Origin: a virus
DNA: 64,000 nt
IMG/VR virus record: IMGVR_UViG_3300013093_000001
Span: 49,906-113,905 of that record
Reading direction: 5' to 3' (one strand)
Shown here: piece after piece, positions 3,813-25,444 of the stretch
Layout of the letters: each line of letters begins with the position of its first letter
Position numbering within the stretch: position 1 is the first letter of the stretch
Notes under the pieces: generated by a model
What the model was told of the DNA's origin: nothing
Database searches by the model: none
The model's input: the letters and a program-made list of their open reading frames with translations, nothing else
Program-made: the position numbers and the translations under genes

Positions 3813-3886
3813 TATCCTCCTTATCTGGGTCGGCCTCTGCCGACCGCGCACCCAGGCCAGGTAATGAACCTGACCTGGGCCTTCTT

Positions 3887-4363
3887 TCAGTTGTGGTAGT
3901 CGACGTGCACCAGCCACGTTGACGGGTCGAGCGAAGCCAGGAATTTCAAAAACTGCTCTTCAAATTCCGGTCCGCGTTCCCAGTCACCAATCACGGTTGA
4001 CCCGCTACCCTCTGGGCCAAGCCACTTCGTGTGCCACACGCAATCAAGGTCCAGGTAACTGTAGACGTAGTCTATCGACTCTGCTACAAGGTCACCGACG
4101 CGTGCACAGTCGGTAGCGCCAGCTTCCGCGACTTCATCGGGGAAACCGAAACTGCTGGGCTCAGACGGCAGACCGCTAACACAGTCGGGTTTCAACCGCC
4201 ACTCACCACCCCACCTGCCGCCAACAACCCACCAGTCCCATTCAGGATCACCTTCTGGGTCACATGAATCGTAGCCATACCGGGACATGCGTAGTTCCAA
4301 CTCGGACCGCAAGTTATCCGGCTCAACATCTCCCGGTATGGCGACAACATGGCTATAGTGCAT
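3887..4363 (-). CDS. hypothetical protein
   Basis: WDWWVVGGRW and C-terminal VDYHN motifs of a common phage family. Confidence 0.75.
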   Translation of the reverse strand: MHYSHVVAIPGDVEPDNLRSELELRMSRYGYDSCDPEGDPEWDWWVVGGRWGGEWRLKPDCVSGLPSEPSSFGFPDEVAEAGATDCARVGDLVAESIDYVYSYLDLDCVWHTKWLGPEGSGSTVIGDWERGPEFEEQFLKFLASLDPSTWLVHVDYHN

Positions 4364-4763
4364 TAGCCGCCACCTCATCTGTCACCGTGGACGCTGGGTA
4401 TTTCGGCGCGAGTTGGTCCCGCAGGAACACCCAAATCCGGTCAGGCAGGCTGGTGGTTTCTCCCTGATCGTCGTGCGACGTCAGGGCAACAGGACCGCAA
4501 ATCACGTCCTGGTTACGCATCTCAGGGCATAAACCCCACCACAACGCTGTCGCTGGCTCATTAACCGGCAAGCCTTGCAGTTTGCCTTCTTCGTTACACC
4601 ACATGTCCAGTTCGTCTGTCACCCGAACCAGTTCAATGTAGCCACCGACAACACCCTGTAGGAATCCCAAACTGGTGGCTTCGTCACCTGACGACACCCG
4701 CCGAAATTCGTACAGACCACCAGAGTCCTGGTCGATAATGGCCGCTTTGTAACCTGTATTCAT
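4353..4763 (-). CDS. DUF3846-like protein
   Basis: LQGVVGGYIE, MWCNEEGKLQGLPVN, DVICGP. Confidence 0.8.
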   Translation of the reverse strand: MNTGYKAAIIDQDSGGLYEFRRVSSGDEATSLGFLQGVVGGYIELVRVTDELDMWCNEEGKLQGLPVNEPATALWWGLCPEMRNQDVICGPVALTSHDDQGETTSLPDRIWVFLRDQLAPKYPASTVTDEVAANAL

Positions 4764-4838
4764 CTTTCCTCCTGTCGGGTCTGACCTCGTGTCAGACCTC
4801 GTGTCGCGGCAAGGTAGTGAGCCTTGCCGGGACGAACT

Positions 4839-4994
4839 TTACGCTGGCGTGTCTGGGCCAAACATAGAGCGCAAGTAATTGAGCTCTTCTTTTTTGAGCT
4901 CACTGACATAGCGCAACTCGCCGCAGTGTTCGCAACTATGCGGGTGGTCATTGCCACCGTCGCATGAGCCACACACCCAATCGTCATACGTCAA
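4839..4994 (-). CDS. small Cys-rich (CxxC..CxxC) protein
   Basis: manual translation from TTG: TYDDWVCGSC..HSCEHC; below ORF-track cutoff. Confidence 0.5.
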   Translation of the reverse strand: MTYDDWVCGSCDGGNDHPHSCEHCGELRYVSELKKEELNYLRSMFGPDTPA

Positions 4995-5051
4995 TCTACT
5001 GCTACCTGCCTCTCTTGGTCACATTGAACTTGCCAGCCTTCAAGCGGTCTA

Positions 5052-5219
5052 CTAATTCTCCCAATGCCGCCTCAAAACCGTCCGCGAAGGCGCTCGCTTC
5101 GTTTTGGTCCAGGTTTTTTCGTCTTTGCACAGCCACATGGGAGAGTGTTCCAGTTGGTCACGGACCCCGGCGACTGCTTCTTGACACCACTCCTCAACCG
5201 CGTGCTCGTCAAACTCCAT
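5052..5219 (-). CDS. small hypothetical protein, possibly frameshifted
   Basis: ATG follows repeat at 5225-5294. Confidence 0.45.
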   Translation of the reverse strand: MEFDEHAVEEWCQEAVAGVRDQLEHSPMWLCKDEKTWTKTKRAPSRTVLRRHWEN

Positions 5220-5336
5220 TGTTGCCTTCCTATAAATTGGTCCTGGCCTGTGCCAATACTCGCGTCCCGGTAAGGTAATAAGCCTTACCGGGACTGTACT
5301 AATAATTAGTACGCTTCACCACACCGGCAACCACAG

Positions 5337-5549
5337 TTACGACGTTATCGGTTCTCCGCGTTGTTCGCCGCGTGCATTGTCCCAGGTATACATCATGACA
5401 TCGAGTGCATTAATGAACCTGACGTACATCTCCGATCCTGTCGGAAGGTAGCGCGGTATAGTTGCGCGTTGATCCCGACCGGTTACGGTTTCCGTCAAAT
5501 GCACGTCCACTTGTATGCCGTCGTAGTCAATGCTGACCCTGATCGTCAC
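5337..5549 (-). CDS. hypothetical protein
   Basis: 4-bp overlap with upstream ORF. Confidence 0.6.
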   Translation of the reverse strand: MTIRVSIDYDGIQVDVHLTETVTGRDQRATIPRYLPTGSEMYVRFINALDVMMYTWDNARGEQRGEPITS

Positions 5550-5728
5550 GACCTAGACTCCCGCTGCATTATACGAATTTCGTCACGGATAACTGGGTGC
5601 CAAAAACTGTTAATTTCCGTTCCTGGTGTCCAATTTTGACGTGCCCACGACCGAAATTCTGCTTCTTCCTCCGGGGTCAAGTCACGGAAAATGCTCTCAA
5701 ACTGACCCGACTTGCTGTTGCGGATCAT
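5546..5728 (-). CDS. hypothetical protein
   Basis: coupled ORF, FRSWARQNW. Confidence 0.65.
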   Translation of the reverse strand: MIRNSKSGQFESIFRDLTPEEEAEFRSWARQNWTPGTEINSFWHPVIRDEIRIMQRESRS

Positions 5729-5892
5729 TAAATTCCCCTCCGCATAGTCAAAACATGCGCTGCATGAGCTAAATTAATCCAAGCGTCAGCAAGTTGTATC
5801 TGACAATTGACTGTCAGTCTCTGACCTAGCGGACCATTCTCCACCGCAGTGAGTATTTTTTCTGCTTTCCGCAGGTACTCAACGGTTTCCAT
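5728..5892 (-). CDS. hypothetical protein
   Basis: ATG after repeat SD. Confidence 0.65.
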   Translation of the reverse strand: METVEYLRKAEKILTAVENGPLGQRLTVNCQIQLADAWINLAHAAHVLTMRRGI

Positions 5893-5965
5893 TCCTCCTC
5901 CAATCACCTTGGCCGGTTGCCAAGGACAGCGCCTGGGCGGGGCACTGAACCCCACCCAGGCTTCC

Positions 5966-6244
5966 TCAATCTTTGTAAATCTTGGACCCCAATGCTTCTT
6001 CGGTCGCAATGACCAAATTCTGCATTGTAGTCAACTCCTGCTCCGTGGTTTCCGCCGCCATTGGCATCATCTCAACCCGGTACTCGACAATTTCGTCAAA
6101 ACCAGCTTCTAGGTGGTCGTCAACGATTTTGGCAGCAGTAGCCGCTGTCATGCCGGGGTTATTCTCTCGCAGTTGCTGGATAAGTTCGCTGCGACTGCCT
6201 CGGTAAACTCGGCTCTGGCCTTCCGGCCTCTTGCCGTCAGTCAT
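5966..6244 (-). CDS. hypothetical protein
   Basis: ATG overlapping upstream stop. Confidence 0.65.
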   Translation of the reverse strand: MTDGKRPEGQSRVYRGSRSELIQQLRENNPGMTAATAAKIVDDHLEAGFDEIVEYRVEMMPMAAETTEQELTTMQNLVIATEEALGSKIYKD

Positions 6245-6707: not shown

Positions 6708-6793
6708 GTTTAACTTCTCCTCTAATCTAGTGCAGGTCGGCTCTTTGCCGACCTCGTACCGGGTGCCGGTACGACCCGACACCCGGCCTCTTT

Positions 6794-7351
6794 TTACGCT
6801 ACAGCCTCAACGCGGTGGGTGTAAAAACACCCATTCTTCCCGCAGTCCACTTCCTGCTGCACAAGCGACCACATTGCGTCCCACACGCCGAATAGCAAAT
6901 CATAATCGGACGGACGACGACCCAAACCGAAATCGTCTTCCGGCTTCATAAACATTGCTATGATCTCGCGTAGCGCCGCTGTCACAATGTCCTTCGCTGC
7001 GTCACACCAAACGAAATTCACGTCTGCCGGGTCGAAGCCCCGGTACCACGACCTCGGTCCCGGCGCTGGCTCTAAACCAGCGTTGGACCGCTCAATTTGA
7101 GCGGCCCTGTACGCCTTCGTGTCGTGGCAGTCGCAGTAATTCCTGTCAGACGCGACAATCTCATCACTGGCAAGTAACTGCCAAATACTGAGATGGACAC
7201 CGGCAAGCAACTCGCTGTCACTGGTCCTGCTGTGCAGGTCCGTGGCATACAAGTCCACGACCTCACGCAAAGCATCCTTCAGGATATCCGTGGCATCTTC
7301 ACACCACAGATAGTCGTCTGACTTTTTGTCGTCTTGGTACTCCCAAGCCAT
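6794..7351 (-). CDS. hypothetical protein with internal duplication
   Basis: WCxDAxDIxxxALRE..SDxxLLxGV occurs twice. Confidence 0.75.
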   Translation of the reverse strand: MAWEYQDDKKSDDYLWCEDATDILKDALREVVDLYATDLHSRTSDSELLAGVHLSIWQLLASDEIVASDRNYCDCHDTKAYRAAQIERSNAGLEPAPGPRSWYRGFDPADVNFVWCDAAKDIVTAALREIIAMFMKPEDDFGLGRRPSDYDLLFGVWDAMWSLVQQEVDCGKNGCFYTHRVEAVA

Positions 7352-7433
7352 ACTTTTCTCCTCCACTATGGGAACCGGCCTTTGCCAGTCCCTCGTACCC
7401 CGGCCGGATTTGACACCGACCGGGGCTGACCTA

Positions 7434-7898
7434 CTACCTACCCTGCGGGAACTCTTCCTGAATCAAAGCGGTGATAAACGCTTTGTGGTCAGCCAGGGCT
7501 TTATTCAGCGCAACGATCACGCCATACACCGCTTGTCGCTCTCGCCAGTCCTGCATCTGCTCCTCGTAGTATTGTCCAGCGGTGACCGTGGAAGCAGGCA
7601 AACGGAACTGTTTGTCCTCACTAAGCGAGTTTAGTATCGCGTTAGGGTCGTCCGGCTTCTGGGGTTGCGGTTCGTTGCCAACAACAGGAGAAAAACCCCA
7701 GTATTGTGCTTCCAGATGATCGATCAGACCTGTCAGAAATTGCTGCGTTATCGGGAAGCCGTCTTCTCCTGCTGGCTGATCATCCGTCAACACAACGTCG
7801 GCAGCCTGCTTCAGCGCTAGCTTCAACGTGCTGCCAGGTACTTCCAAGACGTAATGATCACACGCCTCGTCAATCCGACGCTGCAATTCTGTTGTCAT
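7434..7898 (-). CDS. hypothetical protein
   Basis: ATG after repeat SD. Confidence 0.75.
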   Translation of the reverse strand: MTTELQRRIDEACDHYVLEVPGSTLKLALKQAADVVLTDDQPAGEDGFPITQQFLTGLIDHLEAQYWGFSPVVGNEPQPQKPDDPNAILNSLSEDKQFRLPASTVTAGQYYEEQMQDWRERQAVYGVIVALNKALADHKAFITALIQEEFPQGR

Positions 7899-7973
7899 CT
7901 TTCCTCCAATCTGACCCGACCCTTTGCCGGGTTCGTACCCCGGTCAGGCTCGACCCTGACCGGGGCTGGGCAG

Positions 7974-8831: not shown

Positions 8832-8992
8832 GTTTTCCTCCTCCACGGCGACCCTTTGCCACCGCTTATTTATTTTAGCCAGACAACTGGCTACTCACCA
8901 CCCGGTGGTGGCGAAATCTATGACCCCTCCAGGTAAAATCTCCTCAATACAGGGGAGGTGTAACGACCCGTCAGGTTCGCTACACCCCCTCC

Positions 8993-9230: not shown

Positions 9231-9620
9231 CTAGCCACAATGCCACCGCAGCATTTGAGAATAGTTGACGCAACCCTCTGCGTAACCCTCGGTATACATT
9301 TCCGCTCTCTGCTGGTCGTATTGCCGCTCCGACTCCTTGTACTGCGCGAGCAGTTCAGGCGACAGACGTGACTCGTCAACAGTCAACAAAACTCGCTGAC
9401 CATTGCACACAGAGCAAAGCGCATCATAGACACCCGACTTGTAATCCTGCCAAAAGTCGGGGTCTTGATCGTACATTTCATCCTGGGTCATACCGCCCTC
9501 CCAGCAATCATGCACACCGCGACCTTCACAACGCCAGCAGACCTCGTACTTGTCGGGCAAGTTGACGCTCGTCGGTCCGTCTTCGCTGTTTGCGTCGGTA
9601 CCAAGCATCTGGTACTTCAT
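9231..9620 (-). CDS. DnaJ-type Zn-finger protein
   Basis: CWRCEGRG and CSVCNGQR. Confidence 0.75.
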   Translation of the reverse strand: MKYQMLGTDANSEDGPTSVNLPDKYEVCWRCEGRGVHDCWEGGMTQDEMYDQDPDFWQDYKSGVYDALCSVCNGQRVLLTVDESRLSPELLAQYKESERQYDQQRAEMYTEGYAEGCVNYSQMLRWHCG

Positions 9621-9694
9621 GCTTCTCTCCTCCTAACCGGGCTGGCTTGTGCCAGCCTCGCACCCTGGCCGGGTTCGACCCCGGCCAGGGCTCG

Positions 9695-9895
9695 TCAGGC
9701 CAATCCCCTGACGTACAGGTAACCCTTCACCCGTTCGGCCAGCTCGTAAGCGGAATCGATGATATCCAATTCGTTGGACGAATTGTCATACCGCTCGTAA
9801 AACTGGTTCAGCGCAGCCACGACCGCCTTTGCGTCGTATTCTTGCCGCTCCTGCATAATCGGCAATGACTGCGGCGACCACCAGTGGCCGCTCAC
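9695..9895 (-). CDS. hypothetical protein
   Basis: coupled ORF between repeats. Confidence 0.6.
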   Translation of the reverse strand: MSGHWWSPQSLPIMQERQEYDAKAVVAALNQFYERYDNSSNELDIIDSAYELAERVKGYLYVRGLA

Positions 9896-10098
9896 ATACC
9901 CGGCTTGAAGTCGAAGTACACACGCGGGTTGTGCGTGAACTCCATGACACCTTCGACACGGTCCGACTTCCGTCGGACCATGACGTATGGAGCAGAGAAG
10001 CCAATGACTTCAAATTCTGCCTGTAACTGCTCGGTGTCCCACGTCTGTCCCTCTGGCTTGCGACCAGAGTCGTAGTTGTGGATTTCAATACCTGACAT
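9892..10098 (-). CDS. hypothetical protein
   Basis: ATG after repeat SD; FEVIGFSAPYVMVRRKSD. Confidence 0.75.
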   Translation of the reverse strand: MSGIEIHNYDSGRKPEGQTWDTEQLQAEFEVIGFSAPYVMVRRKSDRVEGVMEFTHNPRVYFDFKPGM

Positions 10099-10179
10099 TT
10101 TTCCTCCTCCACTTGGGTCGGCCTGGTGCCGACCTCGCGCCGTGGTTGAGTTCGACCCCAACCACGGCAATTCTTAGTC

Positions 10180-10530
10180 TCAAACCCGCAGCGTAACAGC
10201 CTGCGGGTTCCTCAACCCAACCGCGAAGGTGTGGTCACCACCGACATCCGTATTACAATGACGGCAGTAGGTTGTAGCACCTACCACTGACAGCGCTGAT
10301 CGCACCCAGGCGAAATGATCGCCAACACACGGCAGGCAAACAGCGCCTCCAGGTTGACCGCACTCCTGCATTGCAATATGCGTTGCTTCCCGTTTGCCAC
10401 ACAGGCCACACCGAATTACCCCGCCAGCTACCTCAGCTAACGAATAAATCTCCCTGAGAGTTTCGATATATGCTTCACCCGTTTTCTCGCTGAGAGACTC
10501 AAGTAATTCTGCTATTAATTCTTCTCCCAT
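10180..10530 (-). CDS. Cys-rich Zn-binding protein
   Basis: three CxxC pairs; ATG after repeat SD. Confidence 0.7.
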   Translation of the reverse strand: MGEELIAELLESLSEKTGEAYIETLREIYSLAEVAGGVIRCGLCGKREATHIAMQECGQPGGAVCLPCVGDHFAWVRSALSVVGATTYCRHCNTDVGGDHTFAVGLRNPQAVTLRV

Positions 10531-10600
10531 GTTTCCTCCTCCTTGTGGCTGGTTGTCAGCCCCGTGCGCTGGCCGGGTAATGAACCCGGCCAGGGCTGTG

Positions 10601-10954
10601 TCATAGCCGCGACAGGACACCGTTAATTAGTTCTGCCACCGCATCCAACGTCACGCCACCAGACAATTTTAGCTTCTCAGCAACATAATCAGCGCTGACC
10701 GGACTGTCGAAGGTGTATGCCCCGCAGGACTTGACTGCAACGAATACCTGCCTGTGGTTGACATAACTGATCGTATTGCTGCCACCGACGTCGCAAGGCG
10801 ATGCAAACAAAATCCGCAGCGCAGTAGCCTGTCTATCCGTCCAAAGCAGAGCGACCGACCCGTAGTAATTCATATCGAACACCACGGCGTCGAATGTACC
10901 GTCGCTGTTGACAACCTGATTGTATTCGTCAAGCGTGTACTGCCGCTCACCCAT
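10601..10954 (-). CDS. hypothetical protein
   Basis: coupled ORF. Confidence 0.7.
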   Translation of the reverse strand: MGERQYTLDEYNQVVNSDGTFDAVVFDMNYYGSVALLWTDRQATALRILFASPCDVGGSNTISYVNHRQVFVAVKSCGAYTFDSPVSADYVAEKLKLSGGVTLDAVAELINGVLSRL

Positions 10955-11115
10955 CACTCTGGTCCGTTCGCCCAAAAATCCAGCAACTCAAGAATTCCGG
11001 TGAGGGCTTCGGCAATAGCTATCTGCGCGTGGTCCTGGCTAGTTGGACGCAAATCCGCACGCCCGTTTTTAGCCCAACCGATCCGCTCTCGCGCATTTTT
11101 CAGGTGTTGATTCAC
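10954..11115 (-). CDS. hypothetical protein
   Basis: GTG after repeat SD. Confidence 0.6.
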   Translation of the reverse strand: MNQHLKNARERIGWAKNGRADLRPTSQDHAQIAIAEALTGILELLDFWANGPE

Positions 11116-11186
11116 TTTTCCTCCAATCTGGTCCGGCATTTGCCGGACTCGTACCCCGGCCAGGTTCGACCCTGGCCGGGGCGTGT

Positions 11187-11648
11187 CTAGCTCGCTATGA
11201 CGCCGCTACCCTCGCAACGCAGGCAGGTCTGGTATCCCAGCGACTCGTGGTCGTAGTCAAACCATTGCGACCCTGGTTCAAGTTGCAGAAGCTTGCTGCG
11301 GTGCAATTCCTCGCTGTAGTTAAAGCCTTCGCCGCTGCAACCCGCGCAAGTGCGCTTGCCTGTCAACTGCAATTCCAGTTCGTAGACAATCGCCGCAACC
11401 TCACAGTTGCAAATATTGACGCTGTGATCGCAACCCAAATCGTCTGAGAGGTATTCAATCAACGACGCCACCAGCGCCTTGGGTACAGGTTGACTGTCAC
11501 CCCGCTCTGGGTGTTTTTCCATCTCAGCGCGGTAGTCAGCGATCTCAGTTCTGCGCATCAATGTCCAAGACGGACGTTCGATGGGGTCACTGACCCGCAA
11601 CGCCTCACTCAGCAGGACATTCTCAATTTCGACCCACTCAGTAGACAT
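11187..11648 (-). CDS. DnaJ-type Zn-finger protein
   Basis: CDHSVNICNC, CAGCSGEG, CLRCEGSG. Confidence 0.75.
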   Translation of the reverse strand: MSTEWVEIENVLLSEALRVSDPIERPSWTLMRRTEIADYRAEMEKHPERGDSQPVPKALVASLIEYLSDDLGCDHSVNICNCEVAAIVYELELQLTGKRTCAGCSGEGFNYSEELHRSKLLQLEPGSQWFDYDHESLGYQTCLRCEGSGVIAS

Positions 11649-11720
11649 CTCTCCTCCTAACTGGGCTGGCCTCTTGCCAGCCTCGTACCCCGGCCAGGTT
11701 CGACCCTGACCGGGGCTATT

Positions 11721-12119
11721 TCAACGAACCGTGAACGACACGGTCATTCCGTCACTCCTACGGTCTATCCTGTCACGCAAACGCGACAGCGAAGCAAACA
11801 GGTGTGCGTGTGGGACTGCTGCAACACCGAACCGTTTGAAACCACCTGGATCGTCAAACTCATCTGCTAAAAACGACTCCGTGTAGTAGTCCTCTGCGTC
11901 TTCGTCAACGTAGCGCACAACTAATCTCCTCACAGGCAACGGACTCAACTCAGCCAGCAACGGCTCCCACAAGCATTGATCGGCAGTGAACGTCACTTCG
12001 TTCTTCGGCCAGCCAAACGTGTCCCTCGGTCCTTCTGACACCCAAGACCAACCTAGCCCTACGGCCATAGTCCGTATGTTTGCTCGGTTTTTCTCTGCAA
12101 TCTCGTACTCGTACTGCAC
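11721..12119 (-). CDS. hypothetical protein
   Basis: fills one inter-repeat interval. Confidence 0.7.
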   Translation of the reverse strand: MQYEYEIAEKNRANIRTMAVGLGWSWVSEGPRDTFGWPKNEVTFTADQCLWEPLLAELSPLPVRRLVVRYVDEDAEDYYTESFLADEFDDPGGFKRFGVAAVPHAHLFASLSRLRDRIDRRSDGMTVSFTVR

Positions 12120-12200
12120 AGTTTTTTCCTCCTCCTAACTGGTCTGGCTCATGCCAGACTCGTACCCGGTACAGGTTCGACCCTGTACCGGGCGCTACCG

Positions 12201-12440
12201 CTAAACCTTCTGCTTACGCGGCTCAAACTCGGTCACAATCGGTTGCGTAGCAGACCCATGATGTGTCCAGTGGTAGTACCCCATCTGGTCAACACCAGTG
12301 AACTCTAAGGGTGGCGGGAACTCTACTAAAACATAGCCGTAACCCAACCGGGCACCTTGCTGCCGGAAGTTATGTTTGGCTTCCGACACGCTGCTGCCTC
12401 GACCCCAGCGGTTTTGACCCATCACAAGGAATGTGGACAT
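12201..12440 (-). CDS. hypothetical protein
   Basis: fills one inter-repeat interval. Confidence 0.7.
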   Translation of the reverse strand: MSTFLVMGQNRWGRGSSVSEAKHNFRQQGARLGYGYVLVEFPPPLEFTGVDQMGYYHWTHHGSATQPIVTEFEPRKQKV

Positions 12441-12516
12441 TCTTTCCTCCAATCTGACCCGACCTCTTGCCGGGTTCGCGTCCTAGCCAGGTTCGACCCT
12501 GACTAGGACTCCTTTA

Positions 12517-12762
12517 TTAGTCTTGGGTACCGTAGCTACCCAACCTGCCACGCAATTCTTTCAGCGTGTCAATCTCCCGCGTCAACTGGTTGGCGTGTGC
12601 TTTGGCGACTTCCAGCGCCGCGTTCCCAACCGCTCGGGTGATGTGCCTGAGCGTGGCATTGATGTGGCTGATGTCAGTGGACTGCCGCAACCACATCGCG
12701 TCCCGCAAGCAGCCATCCAACTCCAAAACCAAGTCGTTGATGGCGTCTTGTAAGTGCTCCAT
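12517..12762 (-). CDS. hypothetical helical protein
   Basis: fills one inter-repeat interval. Confidence 0.7.
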   Translation of the reverse strand: MEHLQDAINDLVLELDGCLRDAMWLRQSTDISHINATLRHITRAVGNAALEVAKAHANQLTREIDTLKELRGRLGSYGTQD

Positions 12763-12835
12763 TTTCCTCCTTCTAACTGGCTGACTCTTTGTCAGCCTCG
12801 TACCCCGGCCAGTTCTGACACTGGCCGGGGCCACC

Positions 12836-16789: not shown

Positions 16790-16862
16790 GCTTCCTCCTC
16801 TAACGGGTCGGCTGTCTGCCGACCTCGTACCCGGTATGGTGTTGAAACCATACCGGGCCTTT

Positions 16863-16979
16863 TTACCGCGACGTACAGGCAAGGGCACGACAATCAGCGC
16901 AGTAGGTTTTGCCGTAGGCGCTGATGTACGCAGTCAGCAACGTCAACGGATTGTCGCAATAAAAGCAGTGGATTAGCAC
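16863..16979 (-). CDS. 38-aa Zn-finger peptide
   Basis: AGGAGGAG SD; CFYC..YCADC. Confidence 0.55.
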   Translation of the reverse strand: MLIHCFYCDNPLTLLTAYISAYGKTYCADCRALACTSR

Positions 16980-17113
16980 TGGTGCTCCTCCTTATAACCA
17001 AAGTGCGACTCAGGCAGCGTCACGGTCAACTCACCGGCAAGAAAAGCTACGGCCTGTTCGCGACTGAGTCGCATCTTTTGGTACTCCCAAATGTCGCGCT
17101 CGTCGTACTCCAT
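16973..17113 (-). CDS. 46-aa hypothetical protein
   Basis: ATG after repeat SD. Confidence 0.55.
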   Translation of the reverse strand: MEYDERDIWEYQKMRLSREQAVAFLAGELTVTLPESHFGYKEEHQC

Positions 17114-17182
17114 TTCCTCCTCCAATCTGGTCAGCTTCTGCCAACCTCGTACCCCGGCCAGGTTCGACCCTGGCCGGGGCTT

Positions 17183-17542
17183 TCACGCCATCTGTTTACA
17201 CGTCCCATCTGCGCTGTGCTTATCCGGCGGCGTCCAGAAGTGTGTCAAACACCCATGTACCGACCTGAGATACCGTTCTACGTCGGGGTGATCTAATTCA
17301 TCTGCCGGGTTGTCGACACGAGAACAAATCTCATTCCACATGACGTCTTCCAACACCGACCCGGTGAATGCGTCTTGGCTCCTACGCCGCTGGTAATCAT
17401 GTACCAGCAACTCGTCGGACAACTCAATGACCTGATCATTGATGTCTTCTCTGACGCAGTCGCTCACCATACCCTGTAGCGGATTAGCACTGGACGGTAA
17501 ACCAAAACCCTCATAGGGTAAAGGCTGCCAATCTCCCTGCAT
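17183..17542 (-). CDS. hypothetical protein
   Basis: ATG after repeat SD. Confidence 0.7.
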   Translation of the reverse strand: MQGDWQPLPYEGFGLPSSANPLQGMVSDCVREDINDQVIELSDELLVHDYQRRRSQDAFTGSVLEDVMWNEICSRVDNPADELDHPDVERYLRSVHGCLTHFWTPPDKHSADGTCKQMA

Positions 17543-17618
17543 GTTTCCTCCTCCTAAACGGGCTGGCTTCTGCCAGCCTCGTGTCCGGTGTGGATTCGAC
17601 CCCACACCGGACCGTATG

Positions 17619-17867
17619 TCAATCTATGCCGCGCCACCACCGCATCGTAATGTCCAAGTTCCAGTCTCCAATCTCCCATTGCCACTGATCGCGTGGCAAT
17701 TCGGCCACGTTTATTTTCTCATCTTCAAACCTGTCGTCACACCACAGCTGGGCAGCGGCAATCGCCTTCTCCTCAGTTGAGTGAAGAGTGACGGAGATGT
17801 ACGGACCCTCTGCATAACACTCGGTGTCAACCAAGCAAATGGTTAGCACCCAGATATCCTGTTCCAT
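17619..17867 (-). CDS. hypothetical protein
   Basis: ATG after repeat SD. Confidence 0.7.
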   Translation of the reverse strand: MEQDIWVLTICLVDTECYAEGPYISVTLHSTEEKAIAAAQLWCDDRFEDEKINVAELPRDQWQWEIGDWNLDITMRWWRGID

Positions 17868-17952
17868 TTTCCTCCTCCAATCTGGTCGGCTTTTTGCCAA
17901 CCTCGTACCCACGTCAGGTTCGACCCTGACGTGGGCGCTCAGCGCTAGCTGA

Positions 17953-18393: not shown

Positions 18394-18476
18394 GGTTGGT
18401 ACTTTCTCCCTCTAACTGGCTCGGCTTTTTGCCAAGCTCGCGTCCTGGTGTGGTTCGACCCACACCAGGACTCCTT

Positions 18477-18725
18477 TCAGTCCAGGTAACTCGCCACCAC
18501 GTCTTCGAATTCAGCTTCGCAGCAGTCACTCACGTCTTCGTAGTACGTTTCGAAGTCAATGATCGGACTCCAGCTAATTCCTGGGCGTGGACGTTCATGC
18601 TCTAGCGCAATCACGTCACATTCGGTGTTGCACTCTCTGCAAACCTGCGTCAGCGGTGGATTTAAGCGCCTTCGCAGCGCTTCCGCTTCCTGCATACGCA
18701 TCAAAAAGTCTTTCATGCGTGACAT
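18477..18725 (-). CDS. hypothetical protein
   Basis: CREC..SDCCEA. Confidence 0.7.
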   Translation of the reverse strand: MSRMKDFLMRMQEAEALRRRLNPPLTQVCRECNTECDVIALEHERPRPGISWSPIIDFETYYEDVSDCCEAEFEDVVASYLD

Positions 18726-18803
18726 TTTTCCTCCTCCAAGGTGGGCATGGCTATTTGCCACGCCTCGTGCCCCGGCCAGGTTCGACCCTGGCCGGGGCTA
18801 GGT

Positions 18804-18990
18804 GCGACGCAGGTACAGTACGCCAGAGGATAGCTGGCGGTCACTCGGGCCGCATCGCAACATGGCTATGCGCGACCTGAGTGGACTGTCCTTGCATTCC
18901 CGCTCCAAAGGGAGCAATCTTACCGCCGAGAAATTGGGCACTCGGCCTCTGCGGCAAGCAAAAACCTTCGGGGGGTGAGTTTAACGTCGC
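18804..18990. ncRNA. structured RNA motif, copy C, occupying a whole inter-repeat slot
   Basis: GCGACG CAGGTAC ... TGAGTTTAA CGTCGC; no credible ORF; upstream repeat has a degraded SD. Confidence 0.65.
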
Positions 18991-19059
18991 TTCCTCTTTT
19001 GTGGTCGGCGTTCTTGCCGACCTCGTGTCCCAGGCAGGTTCGACCCTACCTGGGACTGC

Positions 19060-19308
19060 TCAGGCGCTGATCTTGTCAAACGGGTGCTTAACCCAACACC
19101 GCTCAGCGTTCATCAACGACCGTTTGCCGTCATCATGGACGACATAGAACCACAATGTTCGCTTTCCCGGGTACATCGCTGACGGCTCCCAATGATGGGG
19201 TCGGCAACCGGACAGGTCGATGTAGCCTGCACGCAAATCGTAGTCCCAGACCCGCAACCCGTGCGTGATTGGGACTCCATCAAGGGTGCGCTCTGTCGTC
19301 GTTTCCAT
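19060..19308 (-). CDS. hypothetical protein
   Basis: ATG after repeat SD. Confidence 0.75.
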   Translation of the reverse strand: METTTERTLDGVPITHGLRVWDYDLRAGYIDLSGCRPHHWEPSAMYPGKRTLWFYVVHDDGKRSLMNAERCWVKHPFDKISA

Positions 19309-19407
19309 CTCTTCCTCCTTCTAGCTGGCTATTTGCCAACTCGTACCCCGGCCAGGTTCGACCCTGGCCGGGGCTATATTCAGTTGTTATTCAGTTGTGG
19401 GTTAGTG

Positions 19408-19788: not shown

Positions 19789-19890
19789 CTCTCTTATTTC
19801 CTCCATTGTTGTGTGGCATTCGCCACGCATCCGGCCTTGTGCCGGATGTCTGTACCCGGTGCGGTTATGACGCCACACCGGGCCTTGTTG

Positions 19891-20346
19891 CTAAGCTTCA
19901 ACCGACTGCGACTTCAACGCAGCAATCTGCTGCTGCAACCGCTCGATCTCAGCCACCGGGTCACCCATCATCTGGGTAAACGCCTGCTCAACCGCAGTCA
20001 CAATCCGGTCGGCAGGGTTCAAGCGATAAATCAGGCCTTTTTCATAACCCGACTCACCCTTAATTCCGGCGTAAAGGTTGGTTCCTGCGCGGTTCCGCTT
20101 GACCACGGCCACTCGCCCGTCGTCCATGCGGTACTCACCCGGCTCTGTCACGCGCTCTGCGGCGGGTTTACCACCGGCAAAGGGCGCTTCTAGGGCCTTC
20201 GCAATCAAGGCGCTGGCCTGTTCAGCTGTCATTCCAACAGCTAAAAACTGGTCAATCGCCGACCGCAAGCCGTCTGGTACTTCTCGCTTGACCAGCAGGT
20301 CACCGAGAAAGCTCAGCTGCTTTTCAGTCGCCATTCTTATCGCCAT
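19891..20346 (-). CDS. hypothetical protein (ATEKQ motif)
   Basis: ATG after repeat SD. Confidence 0.75.
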   Translation of the reverse strand: MAIRMATEKQLSFLGDLLVKREVPDGLRSAIDQFLAVGMTAEQASALIAKALEAPFAGGKPAAERVTEPGEYRMDDGRVAVVKRNRAGTNLYAGIKGESGYEKGLIYRLNPADRIVTAVEQAFTQMMGDPVAEIERLQQQIAALKSQSVEA

Positions 20347-20425
20347 GTTTCCTCCTCCATGGGTCCGACCCTGTGCCAGACCTCGTGTCCGGTGCGGTTT
20401 TGACACCGCACCGGACTCCCTAGCA

Positions 20426-20745
20426 ACCCAACATCGCTGTTGGGGGTGGGGCGGTAGGGGTTCCCTACCCACCCCAGTTTGGAGGTTAGAGGAAATCACT
20501 ATTCATTAGACCTGTCGGTGCCACATGCGACCAGCTTCGCGCTGGCCGGGTTTGCACCCTAGCGCCTTGTGTTCACTAGCGGTGCCTCTACGTGCGCGAC
20601 CGCTGCTTCACTTTTGCCACCATCGTCCAAGTGCGCGACGGCGGCCACAAAGCACGCAGGCGCAAGGCTGCTCAGCCAGGTTGCGTGGACACCACAGATA
20701 TAGGTGTCCCGTAAAACCCGACCGGCAACTTTGCGCCTAAAACAA
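20426..20745 (-). ncRNA. ~320-nt structured ncRNA, copy 1
   Basis: homologous to 25445-25789 with compensatory changes; G.U pairs form on minus strand. Confidence 0.7.
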
Positions 20746-20967
20746 GTATACCCAGGGGCCTGAGTGTTGCCTACCCCTAAGCACGACTAATTCTTTCTAA
20801 CCCAAACCTGCTGGCGGCTGCCGGAAGGCTTTACCTTCCCCAGCCAGCCTCGTACCCGGTGTGGCTTCGACACCATACCGGGCCTCCTTACTTGTGCGTC
20901 CAGTCCCGGTAAAGCACCGCGAACAGGGTGCAAGCCATAACAATCATGGCCTCAACAGCGGGTGACA

Positions 20968-21108
20968 TCATTTCTCCCGCTGGCTTTTCAGTCCCAAGCG
21001 TTGACGCACCCAGGCCAGACCTGGCGTTTCAGCCGGGGGCACATAATCCTGTGCGGGTTTAATCCCCTGCCAGACGCTCAACCCCATGTTGGGGTTCATG
21101 TATAGCAT
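20968..21108 (-). CDS. small hypothetical protein
   Basis: ATG after repeat SD. Confidence 0.55.
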   Translation of the reverse strand: MLYMNPNMGLSVWQGIKPAQDYVPPAETPGLAWVRQRLGLKSQREK

Positions 21109-21186
21109 TTCTATCCTCCTTCTAGGTCGGCCTCGTGCCAACCTCGTGTCCCGCGTGGGTTCGACCCCACGCGGGACCACCACCTA

Positions 21187-21372
21187 CTAGGAATTCTCCC
21201 AATTCCGGTAGCTCTTGTCTCGGCGTAACGCTTTCGCGTTTCGCTTCTTGCGCTGGTCTTGGTGGATACCAGCAGCGCCGGATCGTCGCAATTCAAGACG
21301 GGCTCGCAGTTGCTCCTCGCAGGCGCTCAGGTACTTGTCATCCACCAGTTGCAGATGACGCTTCATTATCAT
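21187..21372 (-). CDS. small basic protein
   Basis: ELRRSGAAGIH motif. Confidence 0.65.
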   Translation of the reverse strand: MIMKRHLQLVDDKYLSACEEQLRARLELRRSGAAGIHQDQRKKRNAKALRRDKSYRNWENS

Positions 21373-21460
21373 TATTTCCTCCTGTACCGGCTGGCTCTTT
21401 GCCAGCCTCGTACCCCGGCAGGTTCTGACACCCACCGGGGCCTGGGCCTTTATGGTCCTG

Positions 21461-21643
21461 CTAGAGCAGCACCAAATCTTCAGGCCACGCCTCATCTTCA
21501 CCGCCTGTGTCGAACTGGCCTGGATCCCATTCCAGGACAATGCCAATTCCGTTGGGGCCGTCCACCACCTCAACAACAGTTCCAATCATGGTAGGTGCAC
21601 CGCAAGAGCGGACACGATCTCCCGGTTTGAACTTTTTACTCAT
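21461..21643 (-). CDS. SH3-like small protein
   Basis: KFKPGDRVR..GTVVEV..VLEWD. Confidence 0.7.
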   Translation of the reverse strand: MSKKFKPGDRVRSCGAPTMIGTVVEVVDGPNGIGIVLEWDPGQFDTGGEDEAWPEDLVLL

Positions 21644-21718
21644 TCCTCCTCCACTCTGGTCGGCCTCGTACCGACCTCGTACCCGGTATGGCTTCGACAC
21701 CATACCGGGCCTCGTCAC

Positions 21719-21988
21719 TCAAGCAAAGTCTCGGTAGCGTTTTTCTGCTTCCACGACCGCTCGCGCGATCTTCGACGGTTCCAACCACTCCTGGTGACCG
21801 GACTTAGCTTCCGGCTGCTTCCAGTACCACGCCACGACCTCACTGTGCGTGTCTTCTGCTTTCCACCAGAACAAGCACGTTTCGTAGGTCAAGTCAGGTA
21901 ACTCGACCGTACTCACCAAGACCGAACCAACGCTCTCCAGCGTGACGACTTCTCGTTCGTGGTAACGGGCGTCTTCTTCGTAGTCCAT
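21719..21988 (-). CDS. hypothetical protein
   Basis: VSTV..YETCLF..AKSGH. Confidence 0.75.
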   Translation of the reverse strand: MDYEEDARYHEREVVTLESVGSVLVSTVELPDLTYETCLFWWKAEDTHSEVVAWYWKQPEAKSGHQEWLEPSKIARAVVEAEKRYRDFA

Positions 21989-22064
21989 TTTCTCCTCCTA
22001 ATCAGCTGACCGTTTGCCAGCTTTGCGCCCTGTGTGGTTTCGACACCACACAGGGCCATCTCAC

Positions 22065-22376
22065 TCAGTTGCGCCACCACGTTTCCCAGTCGTACATCTC
22101 ACTGTCGCTCAGGAACCCGTCGCCATCCGGGTCGGTACCAAACCGGGCGAACTCAATGCGCTTCGCCGCTAGGGCGAACTGCAAGTTCTTCGACTCTCCA
22201 GCCGGGACCAAAAACGTCACATCCCACACGGAGAAATCTGTACCGGAACCGGTGTCGTAGCCGTGGTGATCGGCAATGATCTGCTTCAGGAACACCCATT
22301 GGGGGTTTTCCCGTCCAGCGTCATCGCGCTCCGGGTAGGGCAGGTAAGCCTTGTACCGGTGCATTACTGTTGCCAT
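22065..22376 (-). CDS. hypothetical protein
   Basis: ATG after repeat SD. Confidence 0.75.
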   Translation of the reverse strand: MATVMHRYKAYLPYPERDDAGRENPQWVFLKQIIADHHGYDTGSGTDFSVWDVTFLVPAGESKNLQFALAAKRIEFARFGTDPDGDGFLSDSEMYDWETWWRN

Positions 22377-22454
22377 GTTTTCCTCCTCCAACGTGGTCCG
22401 GCCTTGTGCCGGACCTGCGTGCCCTGGCGGGTTCTGACACCCACCAGGGCTTTT

Positions 22455-22760
22455 CTAGCTGGTTGCCGCCTCAAACTCAGCGTTTAACTCAGCAACCTTC
22501 TGCTTGACCGTCCCATCCAGCCACGCTTGCGCCAGTTCATCAATTTTCGGTACCCGGTAGGGCCAAATCTCCCTGAACTCGCTCGCCAGCTTGAATTGCG
22601 CTGTCAAACACTCAGCCGTCATCTCCAACTTGCCGTCAAGTTCTTCTACTATAAACTTGACGAGCTGGGTTTCATTCTGACGGACGGCATCCAATTTCCG
22701 CCAAGTGTTGAAGACGCGCTCTCGCGCTTTTTCTAATTTGGTCGGTGGACCACCAATCAT
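22455..22760 (-). CDS. hypothetical protein
   Basis: ATG after repeat SD. Confidence 0.75.
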   Translation of the reverse strand: MIGGPPTKLEKARERVFNTWRKLDAVRQNETQLVKFIVEELDGKLEMTAECLTAQFKLASEFREIWPYRVPKIDELAQAWLDGTVKQKVAELNAEFEAATS

Positions 22761-22831
22761 TTTTCCTCCTCCTTATCTAGCCACTAGTGGCTTCGTACCG
22801 GTGCAGGGTTCGACCCCCACACCGGTTCCTT

Positions 22832-23101
22832 TTACTGCGAGAACTGCGCGTGGAGCTCTCGGGCGTACTCGGGTATAGCTGCTTTCCACCATGTCTCATA
22901 CCCAAGGTGTTGGGCAATTTGCTGCGCCAAGTGCAGCGCATCTTCCGGCGACAAGAACATGACCGCGTTGCTTCGGTCTGTTTTCGTTCCGGCCAGGTCA
23001 ATGACGACCTTCGTCCCGTCTTCCGTGCGGTGTACGTCTCGCCGTAGCGCGACGTAGTGCATGTAGACGGTGAAGGCGCTGCTTTCGTGGTCTTGTTCCA
23101 T
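22832..23101 (-). CDS. hypothetical protein
   Basis: ATG after repeat SD. Confidence 0.7.
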   Translation of the reverse strand: MEQDHESSAFTVYMHYVALRRDVHRTEDGTKVVIDLAGTKTDRSNAVMFLSPEDALHLAQQIAQHLGYETWWKAAIPEYARELHAQFSQ

Positions 23102-23178
23102 TTTTCCTCCTCCAACATGGGTTCGGCTTCTTGCCGGACCTCGCGTCCCGGTCAGGTTCGACGCTGACCGGGACTCCC

Positions 23179-23424
23179 TCACACGACCGTGAAATTCCCG
23201 GTCTTGGCTTTCACCTTCACGTTCGCGTACCAGCGCCGATCCCGGTAGGGGTCGGGGCCAACCACCACGTCGCTCGGTGTCAGCTCTGCAGCTTTCACAG
23301 TCCCACGGTTGCTGAACGCTGAGGTGTCGGTGAATGCCACCGGCTGCTCAGCCTCAACAGCGTCCTTCAACGCTTTCTTGGACGGGAAGTTACGTCCTCC
23401 TAGCGTGGCGTGGAAGTTGCTCAT
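23179..23424 (-). CDS. hypothetical protein
   Basis: FPSKKALKDAV..VVGPDPYRDRRWYA. Confidence 0.75.
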   Translation of the reverse strand: MSNFHATLGGRNFPSKKALKDAVEAEQPVAFTDTSAFSNRGTVKAAELTPSDVVVGPDPYRDRRWYANVKVKAKTGNFTVV

Positions 23425-23509
23425 TATTTTTCCTCCTCCAACATGGGTCCGGCCTTGTGCCGGACCCTGCGTGCCCCCGCCAGGTTCGACCCTGACGGGG
23501 GCTTCTGTC

Positions 23510-23854
23510 CTACTGGACGTATCCGTTGTCAACACACTCCTGGCAGGTAAAAAACCCTGTCTTTAGGTTGTAGAACCCATCCCAGCCGGTGTCCTTCGCA
23601 TTACAGGACCAGCAATCCGGGGCTGGCATGATTTCGGGCGCTTCGTCCTTGAATGCGTCCCACTCTTTGGGCGTCACCCCGCTGATGAGAAATTCTCTCT
23701 CATCAACACTCAGGTGTGGGAACGCGTCTTGCACGCACTCTCCCACGCCGCGCTCTCGCGCTTCCAGCCACGCTTCCATCGCGTGGGGTGCAACATCAAT
23801 GTCCATCTGGTTCACGTAACCAGTGATGATCGATGTCTTCTGGACTGTGACCAT
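23510..23854 (-). CDS. hypothetical protein
   Basis: VQDAFPHLSVDEREFLISGVTP.EW motif. Confidence 0.75.
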   Translation of the reverse strand: MVTVQKTSIITGYVNQMDIDVAPHAMEAWLEARERGVGECVQDAFPHLSVDEREFLISGVTPKEWDAFKDEAPEIMPAPDCWSCNAKDTGWDGFYNLKTGFFTCQECVDNGYVQ

Positions 23855-23934
23855 TCTTTCCTCCTCCAACTTGGCTCGACCTCATGTCAAGCCTCGTACC
23901 CGGTGGTGGTTCGACCCACCACCGGGCCTTGTGG

Positions 23935-24153
23935 CTAGTGCACCAATTCGTTCGGCATCCAGCCTGGTTGACGGTCTGAGTAGTGTGACTCATCGTCAAC
24001 CGCAGTAATCGTCGCTAACTGCATTCCGTCACCTTCGCTTAGCTTGCATATCGAAGCATTCGCGATTCCCTGCTCTTGCATCGCCAGCAAGGTCTTCAGG
24101 TTCCGTGTGGTCAGTTCAACGCGAAGTTCGTTTCCAACTGCGAACACCTTCAT
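23935..24153 (-). CDS. hypothetical protein
   Basis: ATG after repeat SD. Confidence 0.7.
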   Translation of the reverse strand: MKVFAVGNELRVELTTRNLKTLLAMQEQGIANASICKLSEGDGMQLATITAVDDESHYSDRQPGWMPNELVH

Positions 24154-24235
24154 TTTTTCCTCCTCCAACTTGGCTTGGCCTCGTGCCAGCCTCGTACCCC
24201 TGCCAGGTTCGACCCTGACAGGGGCTCCTTCCGCG

Positions 24236-24682
24236 TCAGCGGTAAAAACCATCACAATCGGTGTCATCTAACCCTAATACGTGGACGAATAGCTTCTCCC
24301 CACACATCAGGCATATCTGCTGGCTGTACTCTTCCAACAACTGATTTTCGACTGCCGAAGCCAGCTCTTCCCCAGACAGACCTTGTTCAGTAAAACTGCT
24401 GAACAACTCGACACAGCGGGGTGCTACCCTCACTGCGTCAATGTGGAAGTCTGCTATCCAGTCCCAGTTCAGTTGTTTATCGTCACCGTGTGCTTTACTA
24501 CTCGTTGACCCGGTGTGATACACATAATCCGACCAGCGGATGTATGTACCGGCCATCGGTGTACCAGAGAGTCTGTAGTGACGATCAACGTATGCCGGTT
24601 CGTGTGGCGGTTCTAATACCGTCTCAACGGTAATCAAAACCGACTCAACCGACAGGGCAGTTTGCAGCAACCGTGCGTCCAC
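24236..24682 (-). CDS. hypothetical protein
   Basis: GTG after repeat SD. Confidence 0.7.
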   Translation of the reverse strand: MDARLLQTALSVESVLITVETVLEPPHEPAYVDRHYRLSGTPMAGTYIRWSDYVYHTGSTSSKAHGDDKQLNWDWIADFHIDAVRVAPRCVELFSSFTEQGLSGEELASAVENQLLEEYSQQICLMCGEKLFVHVLGLDDTDCDGFYR

Positions 24683-24765
24683 TGCTGTTTCCTCCTCCAA
24701 CTTGGCTCGACCTCATGTCAAGCCTCGTACCCGGTACAGTTTCGAGGCTGTACCGGGCCTGTGCG

Positions 24766-24927
24766 CTACGCCAACCCGGCGCGGCGCAGTGCGTCCCGCA
24801 TCGCGGGGTTGCGGTAGTGCGTACCCCGCACCGGGGCGGGACCGCTCGCCTTCGCAGGCATGGCGGCCGGAGTGGCCTCTGCGGCCACAACCGCGACCAG
24901 CTTCCGGTTCACGTTGTATGCGTTCAC
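24766..24927 (-). CDS. small hypothetical protein
   Basis: GTG after repeat SD; NPAMRDALRRAGL. Confidence 0.6.
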   Translation of the reverse strand: MNAYNVNRKLVAVVAAEATPAAMPAKASGPAPVRGTHYRNPAMRDALRRAGLA

Positions 24928-25007
24928 TTTTTTCCTCCTCCAACATGGGCCTGACCTTTTGCCAAGCCTCGTACCCCGGCAGGTTCTGACACCCACCGGG
25001 GCCTTCG

Positions 25008-25280
25008 TCACACGGCGACGATCTTCAATTCGCCTCGCGTGACCAATCGGTACATCGGGCGACACCCATCATCGGTCCGACACAGGGTATCAATGGCGCA
25101 ACGAATGTCATCGACAAGCGTCTCAACTGGGTCATCACCCCTGCGCCAGTTCGGGTAGCGGAACACGTTCTTCATGTCCGCTTCGAACGCAGCAATGTAA
25201 CCAGTGCGTCCAAGAATCTCGTCGGCGTTCCGGGCAAGTGCAACCCAGGCCGCTTCGTCGTAAATCTCCGACATCCTCAT
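25008..25280 (-). CDS. hypothetical protein, first ORF of leftward array
   Basis: ATG after GGAG; start uncertain. Confidence 0.6.
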   Translation of the reverse strand: MRMSEIYDEAAWVALARNADEILGRTGYIAAFEADMKNVFRYPNWRRGDDPVETLVDDIRCAIDTLCRTDDGCRPMYRLVTRGELKIVAV

Positions 25281-25444
25281 GTGACAGCTCCAATCTGTCT
25301 CTAACTCGGTGGCCTCAACTGAGGTCACCGCCTCCGCTTCGTCAGCGGCAGGATGGTTGGTTGTGCAGCGCGGGGTAAATCTCCCAGCCGCGCTGCACAA
25401 CCTCGTGGCCGGTGCGGTTTTGACACCGCACCGGCCTCCAGTAC

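Follow-up and report, generated by a model that had tools for sequence, protein, structure and literature searches.

A repeated double-hairpin and Shine-Dalgarno element in the intercistronic gaps of a phage gene array as a candidate RNA processing signal

The element described here, two RNA hairpins followed by a Shine-Dalgarno (SD) sequence, belongs to a known class of phage gene-connector repeats and stands out in that class by its 44 copies, its two-hairpin design, and a loop and linker that are conserved across lineages. It lies in a 64,000-nucleotide stretch of phage DNA (the window), which comprises bases 49906-113905 of the 113,905-bp IMG/VR virus record IMGVR_UViG_3300013093_000001. 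The record has direct terminal repeats and is rated complete; positions below are those of the window unless marked as genome positions. The closest known kind of repeat is the promoter-early stem-loop (PeSL) of the T4-type phages RB49 and phi1 (Arbiol et al. 2010, PMC2839356). PeSLs form about 50 intergenic cassettes per genome, concentrated in a plastic ORFan region; each begins at the stop codon of one gene, includes a stem-loop, and reaches the SD and start codon of the following gene. Their stems tolerate G-T pairs, and they are associated with modular gene shuffling (PMC2839356). The present element resembles them in that its stem-loops lie between the stop codon of one gene and the SD of the next, and in its concentration ahead of ORFans in a plastic region. 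However, a PeSL has a consensus sigma-70 early promoter and a terminator stem-loop, whereas the element here has neither a promoter nor a U-tract. It has instead a pair of hairpins separated by a fixed linker of 4 nt, together with a conserved loop, and its inferred host is actinobacterial rather than enterobacterial.

Two other well-known systems offer points of comparison. The RNase III sites of the phage T7 early genes (R0.3-R1.3) and of Bacillus phage SP82 are intercistronic hairpins at which host cleavage yields stem-protected monocistronic mRNAs. The T7 sites number 5-10; each is one irregular stem that spans at least about 20 bp, contains an internal loop, and is cleaved within its helix. 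The logic proposed below is the same, but the present element has two short perfect stems (12 and 7-8 bp) joined by a 4-nt linker, occurs in 44 copies, and has a predicted rather than observed cleavage. Integron attC sites need the IntI integrase, carry conserved bulged bases and a GTTRRRY core, and fold as bottom-strand single-stranded DNA. Like them, the element is a structure-conserved, sequence-variable, strand-specific folded site between promoterless single-gene cassettes. In contrast to attC, it is accompanied by no integrase, its stems are near-perfect, each copy includes an SD, and its recurrent GTTAGGA ends in A rather than a pyrimidine.

Among phages of the mycobacteriophage host group inferred here, the start-associated sequences (SAS) of cluster K likewise lie before start codons. 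Each genome has 11-19 of them, located in the non-structural half within a few bases of the start codon that follows; they favor gaps of >50 bp and are of unknown function (Pope et al. 2011, PMC3203893). About half of them are preceded by an inverted repeat (ESAS) with 17-bp repeats, whose half-sites are conserved in sequence without RNA-type compensation and which the authors favor as DNA-binding sites (PMC3203893). In the present element, by contrast, the stems covary (17 of 19 pairs) and only the loop, linker, and SD are conserved. The 13-bp SAS, GGGATAGGAGCCC, has no match in the window with up to two mismatches. A first-pass annotation of the window, made from the sequence alone, had called the element more elaborate than these start-associated sequences; the absence of the 13-bp SAS and the lack of covariation in ESAS inverted repeats (PMC3203893) agree with that view. 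The element also differs from an intrinsic terminator, as no U-tract follows hairpin 1, and from REP/MITE palindromes, which occur in both orientations, have no tie to translation signals, and sometimes lie in genes, whereas all 45 copies found here lie on one strand, run from stop to start, and carry an SD.

The element and its array

Direct-repeat families of 50-80 nt occupy the gaps throughout 3.8-25.4 kb. A plain hairpin-plus-linker scan recovered 38 copies, and a covariance model built from those 38 affords 45 minus-strand matches (E<1e-8), 44 of them at 3804-25441 and one at 40460-40539. This result bears out the earlier count of about 44 copies dividing some 22 kb into gene cassettes. 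A second covariance model that includes both hairpins (R2) returns the identical set of 45, and plus-strand model matches are merely the palindromic stems of the same sites. The covariance-model search of the genome's first 49.9 kb found no element. A crude gene map of the array contains about 51 minus-strand genes, transcribed leftward, with a median product of 103 aa; the proteins are small ORFans with almost no Pfam or PHROG function. The junction gaps are bimodal, measuring either -20 to +8 nt (overlapping or adjacent genes) or 69-88 nt holding one element, and nearly every non-overlapping junction of the 21.6-kb array is filled by an element. The copies are listed in the direction of transcription, with scores in bits of the R2 model; z denotes the fold z-score and MFE the minimum free energy.

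3804-25441 (-): array of 44 double-hairpin/SD elements, from cmsearch and the gene map
25376-25441 (-): element 1, hairpin 1 and linker, then a different long hairpin, no adjacent SD; 36.0
24925-25007 (-): element; 79.3
24682-24763 (-): element; 73.2
24150-24230 (-): element; 85.5; z -3.8
23851-23932 (-): element; 79.5
23423-23507 (-): element; 77.0
23097-23179 (-): element; 78.9
22756-22831 (-): element, short hairpin 2; 58.8
22373-22455 (-): element; 76.0
21982-22061 (-): element; 72.1
21636-21715 (-): element; 75.2
21366-21446 (-): element; 74.2
21106-21182 (-): element; 75.7
20787-20888 (-): variant, hairpin 1 and linker, then a different hairpin; precedes a 330-nt RNA module; 49.0
20342-20421 (-): element, first after the 330-nt module; 77.6
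19808-19888 (-): variant, linker ACAGA, SD further downstream; 50.5
19302-19379 (-): element; 69.6
18981-19061 (-): element; 64.6
18721-18803 (-): element; 82.6
18396-18476 (-): element; 75.0
17862-17941 (-): element; 79.2; z -6.0
17538-17617 (-): element; 79.5
17107-17185 (-): element; 77.3
16785-16863 (-): element, loop UUCAAC; 72.0
16297-16377 (-): element; 74.9
15555-15634 (-): element; 72.4
14973-15052 (-): element; 78.3
14374-14456 (-): element, divergent stem; 58.7
13935-14013 (-): element; 72.3
12757-12836 (-): element; 78.7
12434-12514 (-): element; 77.2
12119-12198 (-): element; 80.8
11641-11721 (-): element, best-scoring copy; 86.9; MFE -43.2 kcal/mol, z -5.3; antisense -35.6 kcal/mol
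11108-11187 (-): element; 77.1
10526-10601 (-): variant, 7-nt loop UUCAUUA; 50.3
10094-10173 (-): element; 76.7
9617-9696 (-): element; 78.2
7891-7971 (-): element; 76.8
7348-7431 (-): element; 63.3
6712-6792 (-): element; 66.9
5885-5966 (-): variant, 7-nt loop; 57.1
5217-5299 (-): variant, 7-nt loop; 47.5
4756-4838 (-): variant, 7-nt loop; 61.8
3804-3885 (-): last element of the array, 7-nt loop; 61.5
40460-40539 (-): lone copy outside the array, before the 220-aa phrog_4652 gene; 60.3

Between the stop codon of the preceding gene and the element there are 2-19 nt, and a purine then precedes hairpin 1 in 40 of the 45 copies. Hairpin 1 has 12 bp, begins with G at position 1 in 43/45, and is closed at its base by a G.U or G-C pair; in all 45 copies, 11-12 of the 12 positions form standard pairs. 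The loop reads G-U-C-R-A-A, and its U and C are invariant among the 40 loops of six nt (40/40 each). The 4-nt linker that follows, RCGA, has its C in 45/45 copies and leads into hairpin 2, which is 7-8 bp long in 37/45, with a conserved GGC/GCC top and a loop that begins with A in 42/45. The Shine-Dalgarno sequence GGAGGAGGAAA is located 3-8 nt past hairpin 2 (its core at 5-6 nt in 29/45), preceded by the recurrent GTTAGGA and followed by the start codon, about 66-78 nt past the base of hairpin 1. The first-pass annotation had described an element of about 68 bp running from stop to start, with a conserved loop, a UACGAG linker, and a conserved SD. The placement, the loop, and the SD stand, whereas the length is about 70-80 nt and the linker needs redrawing: its initial U/C sits in the basal pair of hairpin 1, leaving RCGA as the single-stranded portion.

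Every copy adopts the same minimum-energy fold, and the SD is unpaired in nearly all predicted folds. For three example copies, the fold z-scores lie between -3.8 and -6.0. Pairing in the stems is near-perfect, with no conserved bulged or extrahelical bases. Alignment with MAFFT followed by RNAalifold reveals compensatory changes at 10 of the 12 hairpin 1 pairs. A set of 49 copies, 45 from this phage and 4 from elsewhere, was aligned by fitting to the covariance model, and the plain MAFFT result concurs for hairpin 1. In this set, 96.9% of cells are paired as compared to 73.0% in shuffles, with 0/500 shuffles reaching the observed value; double (both-side) changes occur at 17 of 19 pairs, and the covariation score is 0.706, versus 0.246 when shuffled and <=0.10 when the partners are slid. 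The compensatory stem changes noticed at first reading are confirmed. G.U pairs outnumber A.C pairs by 85 to 9, or by 58 to 9 without the basal pair (p = 7e-10), and pairing falls from 96.9% on the sense strand to 88.6% on the antisense strand. The excess of G.U over A.C identifies the mRNA-sense strand as the one that folds, as had been proposed. A pseudoknot between loop UCG and linker CGA was considered and rejected: loops with A at position 4 keep the linker, so that no covariation is seen, and a 12-bp helix would have to be bridged, which is geometrically implausible.

Hairpin 1 occurs in more than 30 different sequences, one of them at four distant sites, and neighboring elements are no more alike than distant ones (0.60 vs 0.57). 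No paralogues were found among the array proteins, and the repeats are therefore not leftovers of gene duplication. A scan for sigma-70-type promoters gave 11 sites versus 7.8 +/- 3.0 in shuffles, none within an element. U-tailed terminators occur at the shuffle level, with none called inside elements on the sense strand, where hairpin 1 leads into RCGA-GG with no U-tract. The few promoter-like sites in the array lie at 25.8 kb, 20.75 kb, 13.78 kb, and 8.88 kb. A reading of the conserved blocks as an ECF-sigma or sigma-54 promoter was rejected on inspection, the spacing being wrong.

The distribution of the element beyond this genome was examined at several levels. Rfam gave 0 matches at the gathering threshold over the 64-kb window and nothing relevant, including tRNA or tmRNA, at E up to 10 on 2 kb; the element has no Rfam family. 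Neither megablast nor blastn matched it in GenBank phages, and two cluster J genomes, Courthouse and LittleE, do not contain it. Five copies are found on two 1.4-kb soil-metagenome contigs, with different stems, the loop GUCGAA or GUCAGA, the linker ACGA, a hairpin 2, and the same SD. G011, a complete 60-kb virus record with 66% G+C, has three copies at consecutive junctions, two adjacent ones being identical; a 33-kb contig has two copies, and G012, a 93-kb record, has hairpin 1 plus ACGA. The IMG/VR relatives reached via the portal protein are fragments that lack the early region; a single decayed copy, in L140 (IMG/VR fragment G003, 74% portal identity), was all they yielded. A search with the Ku protein found no relatives, and a 110.8-kb contig outside IMG/VR encodes a homologue of one cassette protein. 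Loose DNA-pattern matches proved to be chance only and were discarded by the covariance model or a stem-complementarity check. What the lineages have in common is the loop, the linker, a hairpin 1 of 12 bp, and the arrangement of two hairpins, while the stems and hairpin 2 differ. Because the GUCRAA loop and the linker are conserved in phages such as G011 and G012, which share almost no proteins with this phage, the reader of the element is probably a host-encoded factor rather than a phage protein; RNase E, RNase P, or another factor are candidates.

A processing module and the alternatives to it

The element may well be an intercistronic module that processes and stabilizes RNA and insulates translation on long polycistronic early transcripts. 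This is the reading we favor, tentatively and at a little short of an even chance. A host endoribonuclease, for which RNase E is the best candidate, would cut the linker between its purine and the invariant C. Mycobacterial RNase E makes 88% of its cuts 5' of C in single-stranded RNA, with a bias for a preceding purine, and its sites are most enriched between the genes of polycistrons (PMC10641625). After such a cut, the upstream cistron would end in the 12-bp hairpin 1, which would block 3' exonucleases. The downstream cistron would start, after about three unpaired nt, with hairpin 2 and then a strong SD, an arrangement expected to block 5'-end-dependent decay by RNase E or RNase J. Hairpin 2 would also shield the SD from pairing with foreign upstream coding sequence, and the GUCRAA loop may add a protein contact. 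Each ORFan would in this way become an autonomous, stable, and well-translated message regardless of its neighbors.

We count in support of this module the structure and its strand, the invariant linker C with its purine, the loop, the fixed position, the bimodal gaps, the small number of promoter-like sites, and the lack of enrichment in sigma-70-type promoters or U-tailed terminators. The clues to a Mycobacterium-like host and the second hairpins that stand alone with an SD, both described below, also speak for it. The recurrence of the same architecture in protein-unrelated phages is counted as well, as is the lack of a phage-encoded RNase III or sigma factor; neither RNase III nor sigma-70 region 2 was found in the phage by searches that had positive controls. 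The first-pass proposal of an RNA processing, stabilization, or translation signal is therefore retained as the best reading, because covariation, G.U asymmetry, and fixed spacing show that the element folds on the mRNA-sense strand and is tied to the stop, SD, and start signals of translation.

Several observations weigh against the processing module. The cleavage is predicted from two of the four linker bases, which match a loose enzyme preference. Cutting by RNase E leaves the GUCRAA loop, the G and A of RCGA, and the exact 12-bp length unexplained, and a model in which the enzyme accounts for neither the loop nor the exact stem length is incomplete. Some minimum-energy folds show weak pairing of the first two linker bases with a GU after hairpin 2, which would lower accessibility. 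The host identity itself rests on inference, and the phage G+C of 55% is low for Mycobacterium. If the reading is correct, no phage early operon described so far would be punctuated at the RNA level as densely and regularly as this array. It would also give an initial view of how, in phages that infect mycobacteria-like hosts, dozens of unrelated ORFans can each be kept stable and translated independently with very few promoters. A compact element of some 70 nt could then be put to use as an intercistronic insulator in operon engineering for mycobacteria.

The most interesting rival holds that hairpin 1 and RCGA mimic the acceptor/T-arm minihelix of a tRNA and are excised by host RNase P (5' of G1) and by RNase Z or RNase E (after the discriminator-like purine). 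The acceptor/T-arm hairpin is a model RNase P substrate and is cleaved by that enzyme (PMC11143913). The 12-bp (7+5) stem is present in every copy, also in the unrelated phages, and G occupies +1 in 43/45. Loop positions 2-5, U C R A, match the conservation pattern of T-loop U55 C56 R57 A58, a purine and C follow the helix, RCGA is one base off RCCA, and the intercistronic position recalls mitochondrial tRNA punctuation; the apparently host-encoded reader would also be accommodated. We nevertheless consider the mimic unlikely. Its loop, GUCRAA, has six nt rather than the seven of the T-loop consensus UUCRANY, with G where T54 is expected, and its tail is RCGA rather than a 3' RCCA. ARAGORN detects 0 tRNA genes in the phage, and the Rfam tRNA model gives no hit even at E up to 10. 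Cleavage by RNase P would strip the upstream cistron of its protective 3' hairpin, and hairpin 2 is left with no role. Were the mimic real, it would be a bacterial-virus counterpart of mitochondrial tRNA punctuation, a 30-nt minimal substrate repeated 44 times in one genome and adopted by several unrelated actinobacterial phages. A loop and linker that are conserved while the stems vary freely are typical of protein-recognized hairpins, and a dedicated host or phage RNA-binding protein might read GUCRAA and RCGA without cleavage, either to switch translation of the early array or to make RNA polymerase termination-resistant (nut/put-like). The two hairpins a few nt apart resemble the put RNAs of phage HK022, and the 330-nt RNA described below, which heads both sub-arrays and has an anti-SD-like stretch, could act on the SD regions. 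This possibility is likewise improbable, as no candidate protein was found, the element-carrying phages share almost no proteins, 44 serial antitermination sites would be without precedent, and the SD is unpaired in nearly all predicted folds.

Three further explanations were weighed. An attenuator or terminator hairpin combined with an unrecognized promoter in each element would let each gene be transcribed singly, in the manner of PeSLs or of the phage N4 hairpin promoters. PeSL, the nearest known repeat system, is of this kind, GTCGAA and TACGAG can be read as promoter boxes, and hairpin 2 lies at the predicted transcript starts of stand-alone sites. However, those boxes are about 11 nt apart, and TACGAG does not end in the T expected of a -10 box; the promoter scan gave a count at the level of shuffles, hairpin 1 has no U-tract, and no sigma factor was found in the phage. 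A search for a T7-type RNA polymerase was negative, with an uninformative control, and a template-strand DNA hairpin would bear 85 C.A mismatches. We regard this explanation as quite improbable and give equally little credence to a DNA-level recombination connector as the primary function, whether by attC-like capture or by PeSL-like homologous shuffling and mini-circles. Such a connector would explain single-gene cassettes of unrelated ORFans framed by similar repeats, and PeSLs act so in T4-type phages (PMC2839356). In L140, which holds the decayed copy, two shared genes lie close together that are 2.4 kb and about eight cassettes apart here, and in L152 a homologue of one cassette gene stands behind an element beside a different upstream neighbor; both comparisons rest on short tblastx matches to short fragments of relatives. 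Neither a tyrosine recombinase (PF00589) nor a serine recombinase (PF00239) is present in the complete genome, by searches whose positive controls worked. With near-perfect stems that lack conserved bulges and no cassette paralogues, this leaves the attC-like cassette-capture site proposed at first reading without support. The single orientation, the fixed SD-start spacing, and the G.U-tolerant covariation indicate selection on RNA, and copies next to each other resemble one another no more than copies far apart. As a side effect, forty-odd similar 70-nt repeats could plausibly allow whole cassettes to be exchanged by homologous recombination. A selfish miniature palindromic repeat (REP/MITE-like) spreading through intergenic gaps would account for the identical hairpin 1 at four distant sites, the two adjacent identical copies in G011, and the copies in unrelated phages. 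We consider it very unlikely, since all 45 copies have one orientation, always run from stop to start, and supply the next gene's SD, with no copy within a gene or in the structural half of the genome and no transposase detected among the phage proteins scanned. The protein-binding, hidden-promoter, recombination, and selfish-repeat explanations are each less well supported.

Leader modules and isolated second hairpins

Two copies of a module of about 330 nt head two sub-arrays.

25445-25790 (-): structured RNA/leader module of about 330 nt with a promoter-like site at its head; starts the array
20425-20742 (-): second copy of the 330-nt module, 82% identical, with promoter-like TAGGCA-17-TATACT at 20773-20745

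RNAalifold on the two modules predicts 90 pairs, 9 of them compensatory between the copies. Both contain a perfectly conserved, anti-SD-like UUUCCUCUAACCUCCAAAC that is complementary to the SD region of the elements. The module may serve the array as a structured leader or as a regulatory RNA.

A hairpin-2-like stem-loop followed by an SD, with no hairpin 1, was found at four sites.

8845-8865 (-): 6 nt after a TAAAAT -10-like box, before the Ku gene
42722-42744 (-): 9 nt after TTGTGA-17-TACTAT
13390-13410 (-): stem-loop and SD
genome 46057-46075 (46.07 kb; -): stem-loop and SD

Three of the four (the Ku gene, 42.7 kb, and genome 46.07 kb) lie 6-9 nt past TAAAAT/TACTAT, with a TGGTGA/TTGTGA -35-like box 17 nt upstream. 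The location of hairpin 2 and an SD at the predicted 5' end of these few promoter-proximal transcripts fits the role of a 5'-end module. An untranslated gap of about 330 nt, at 13391-13696 (-), precedes a 176-aa gene at 13366-12836 and ends in a hairpin-2-like stem-loop.

Source phage, inferred host, and neighboring features

The source is a tailed phage that encodes portal, prohead protease, and capsid genes. The closest relatives of its portal are from cluster J (Omegavirus) mycobacteriophages, with 46% amino-acid identity. Further gene products include the Ku protein and an Rv2525c-like lysin domain, and a PPE-family protein is encoded at 1943-2953 (+) (PF00823, E = 3e-47, plus a PPE-SVP C-terminal region). 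The PPE family is otherwise typical of Mycobacterium, and the gene is both a host clue and an unusual phage cargo. The window has a G+C content of 53-61%. Taken together, the PPE protein, the Rv2525c-like lysin domain, and a portal nearest to cluster J make a Mycobacterium-like actinobacterium the likely host.

The genome also has a radical-SAM (QueE-like) gene, a GTP cyclohydrolase I gene, and two QueC-like genes at genome 26164-27419 and 42764-44235 (L128:6264-7519, L129:2964-4435). This set suggests 7-deazaguanine modification of the phage DNA, and 7-deazaguanine synthesis genes are common to this phage and G012. In L140, a different repeated palindrome, GATTTCAAAWTGAAATC, occurs in intergenic gaps at 1260-2140 in at least five copies, one of which interrupts the decayed hairpin 1; it looks like an operator-type site.

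The gene behind the outlying element, at 39799-40461 (-), encodes the 220-aa phrog_4652 protein, which has no Pfam family and a weak PDB match to 'SUSP1 Vipr protein' (E = 3e-4). It has >3700 homologues at 70-80% identity in actinobacterial phages and prophages. This protein was considered as a Cas6/RAMP-like reader of the element and rejected, having no Pfam Cas family and not being specific to element-carrying genomes. Just upstream of the same element, at 40295-41318, overlapping low-complexity open reading frames rich in Arg, Gly, Pro, and Ala occupy both strands.

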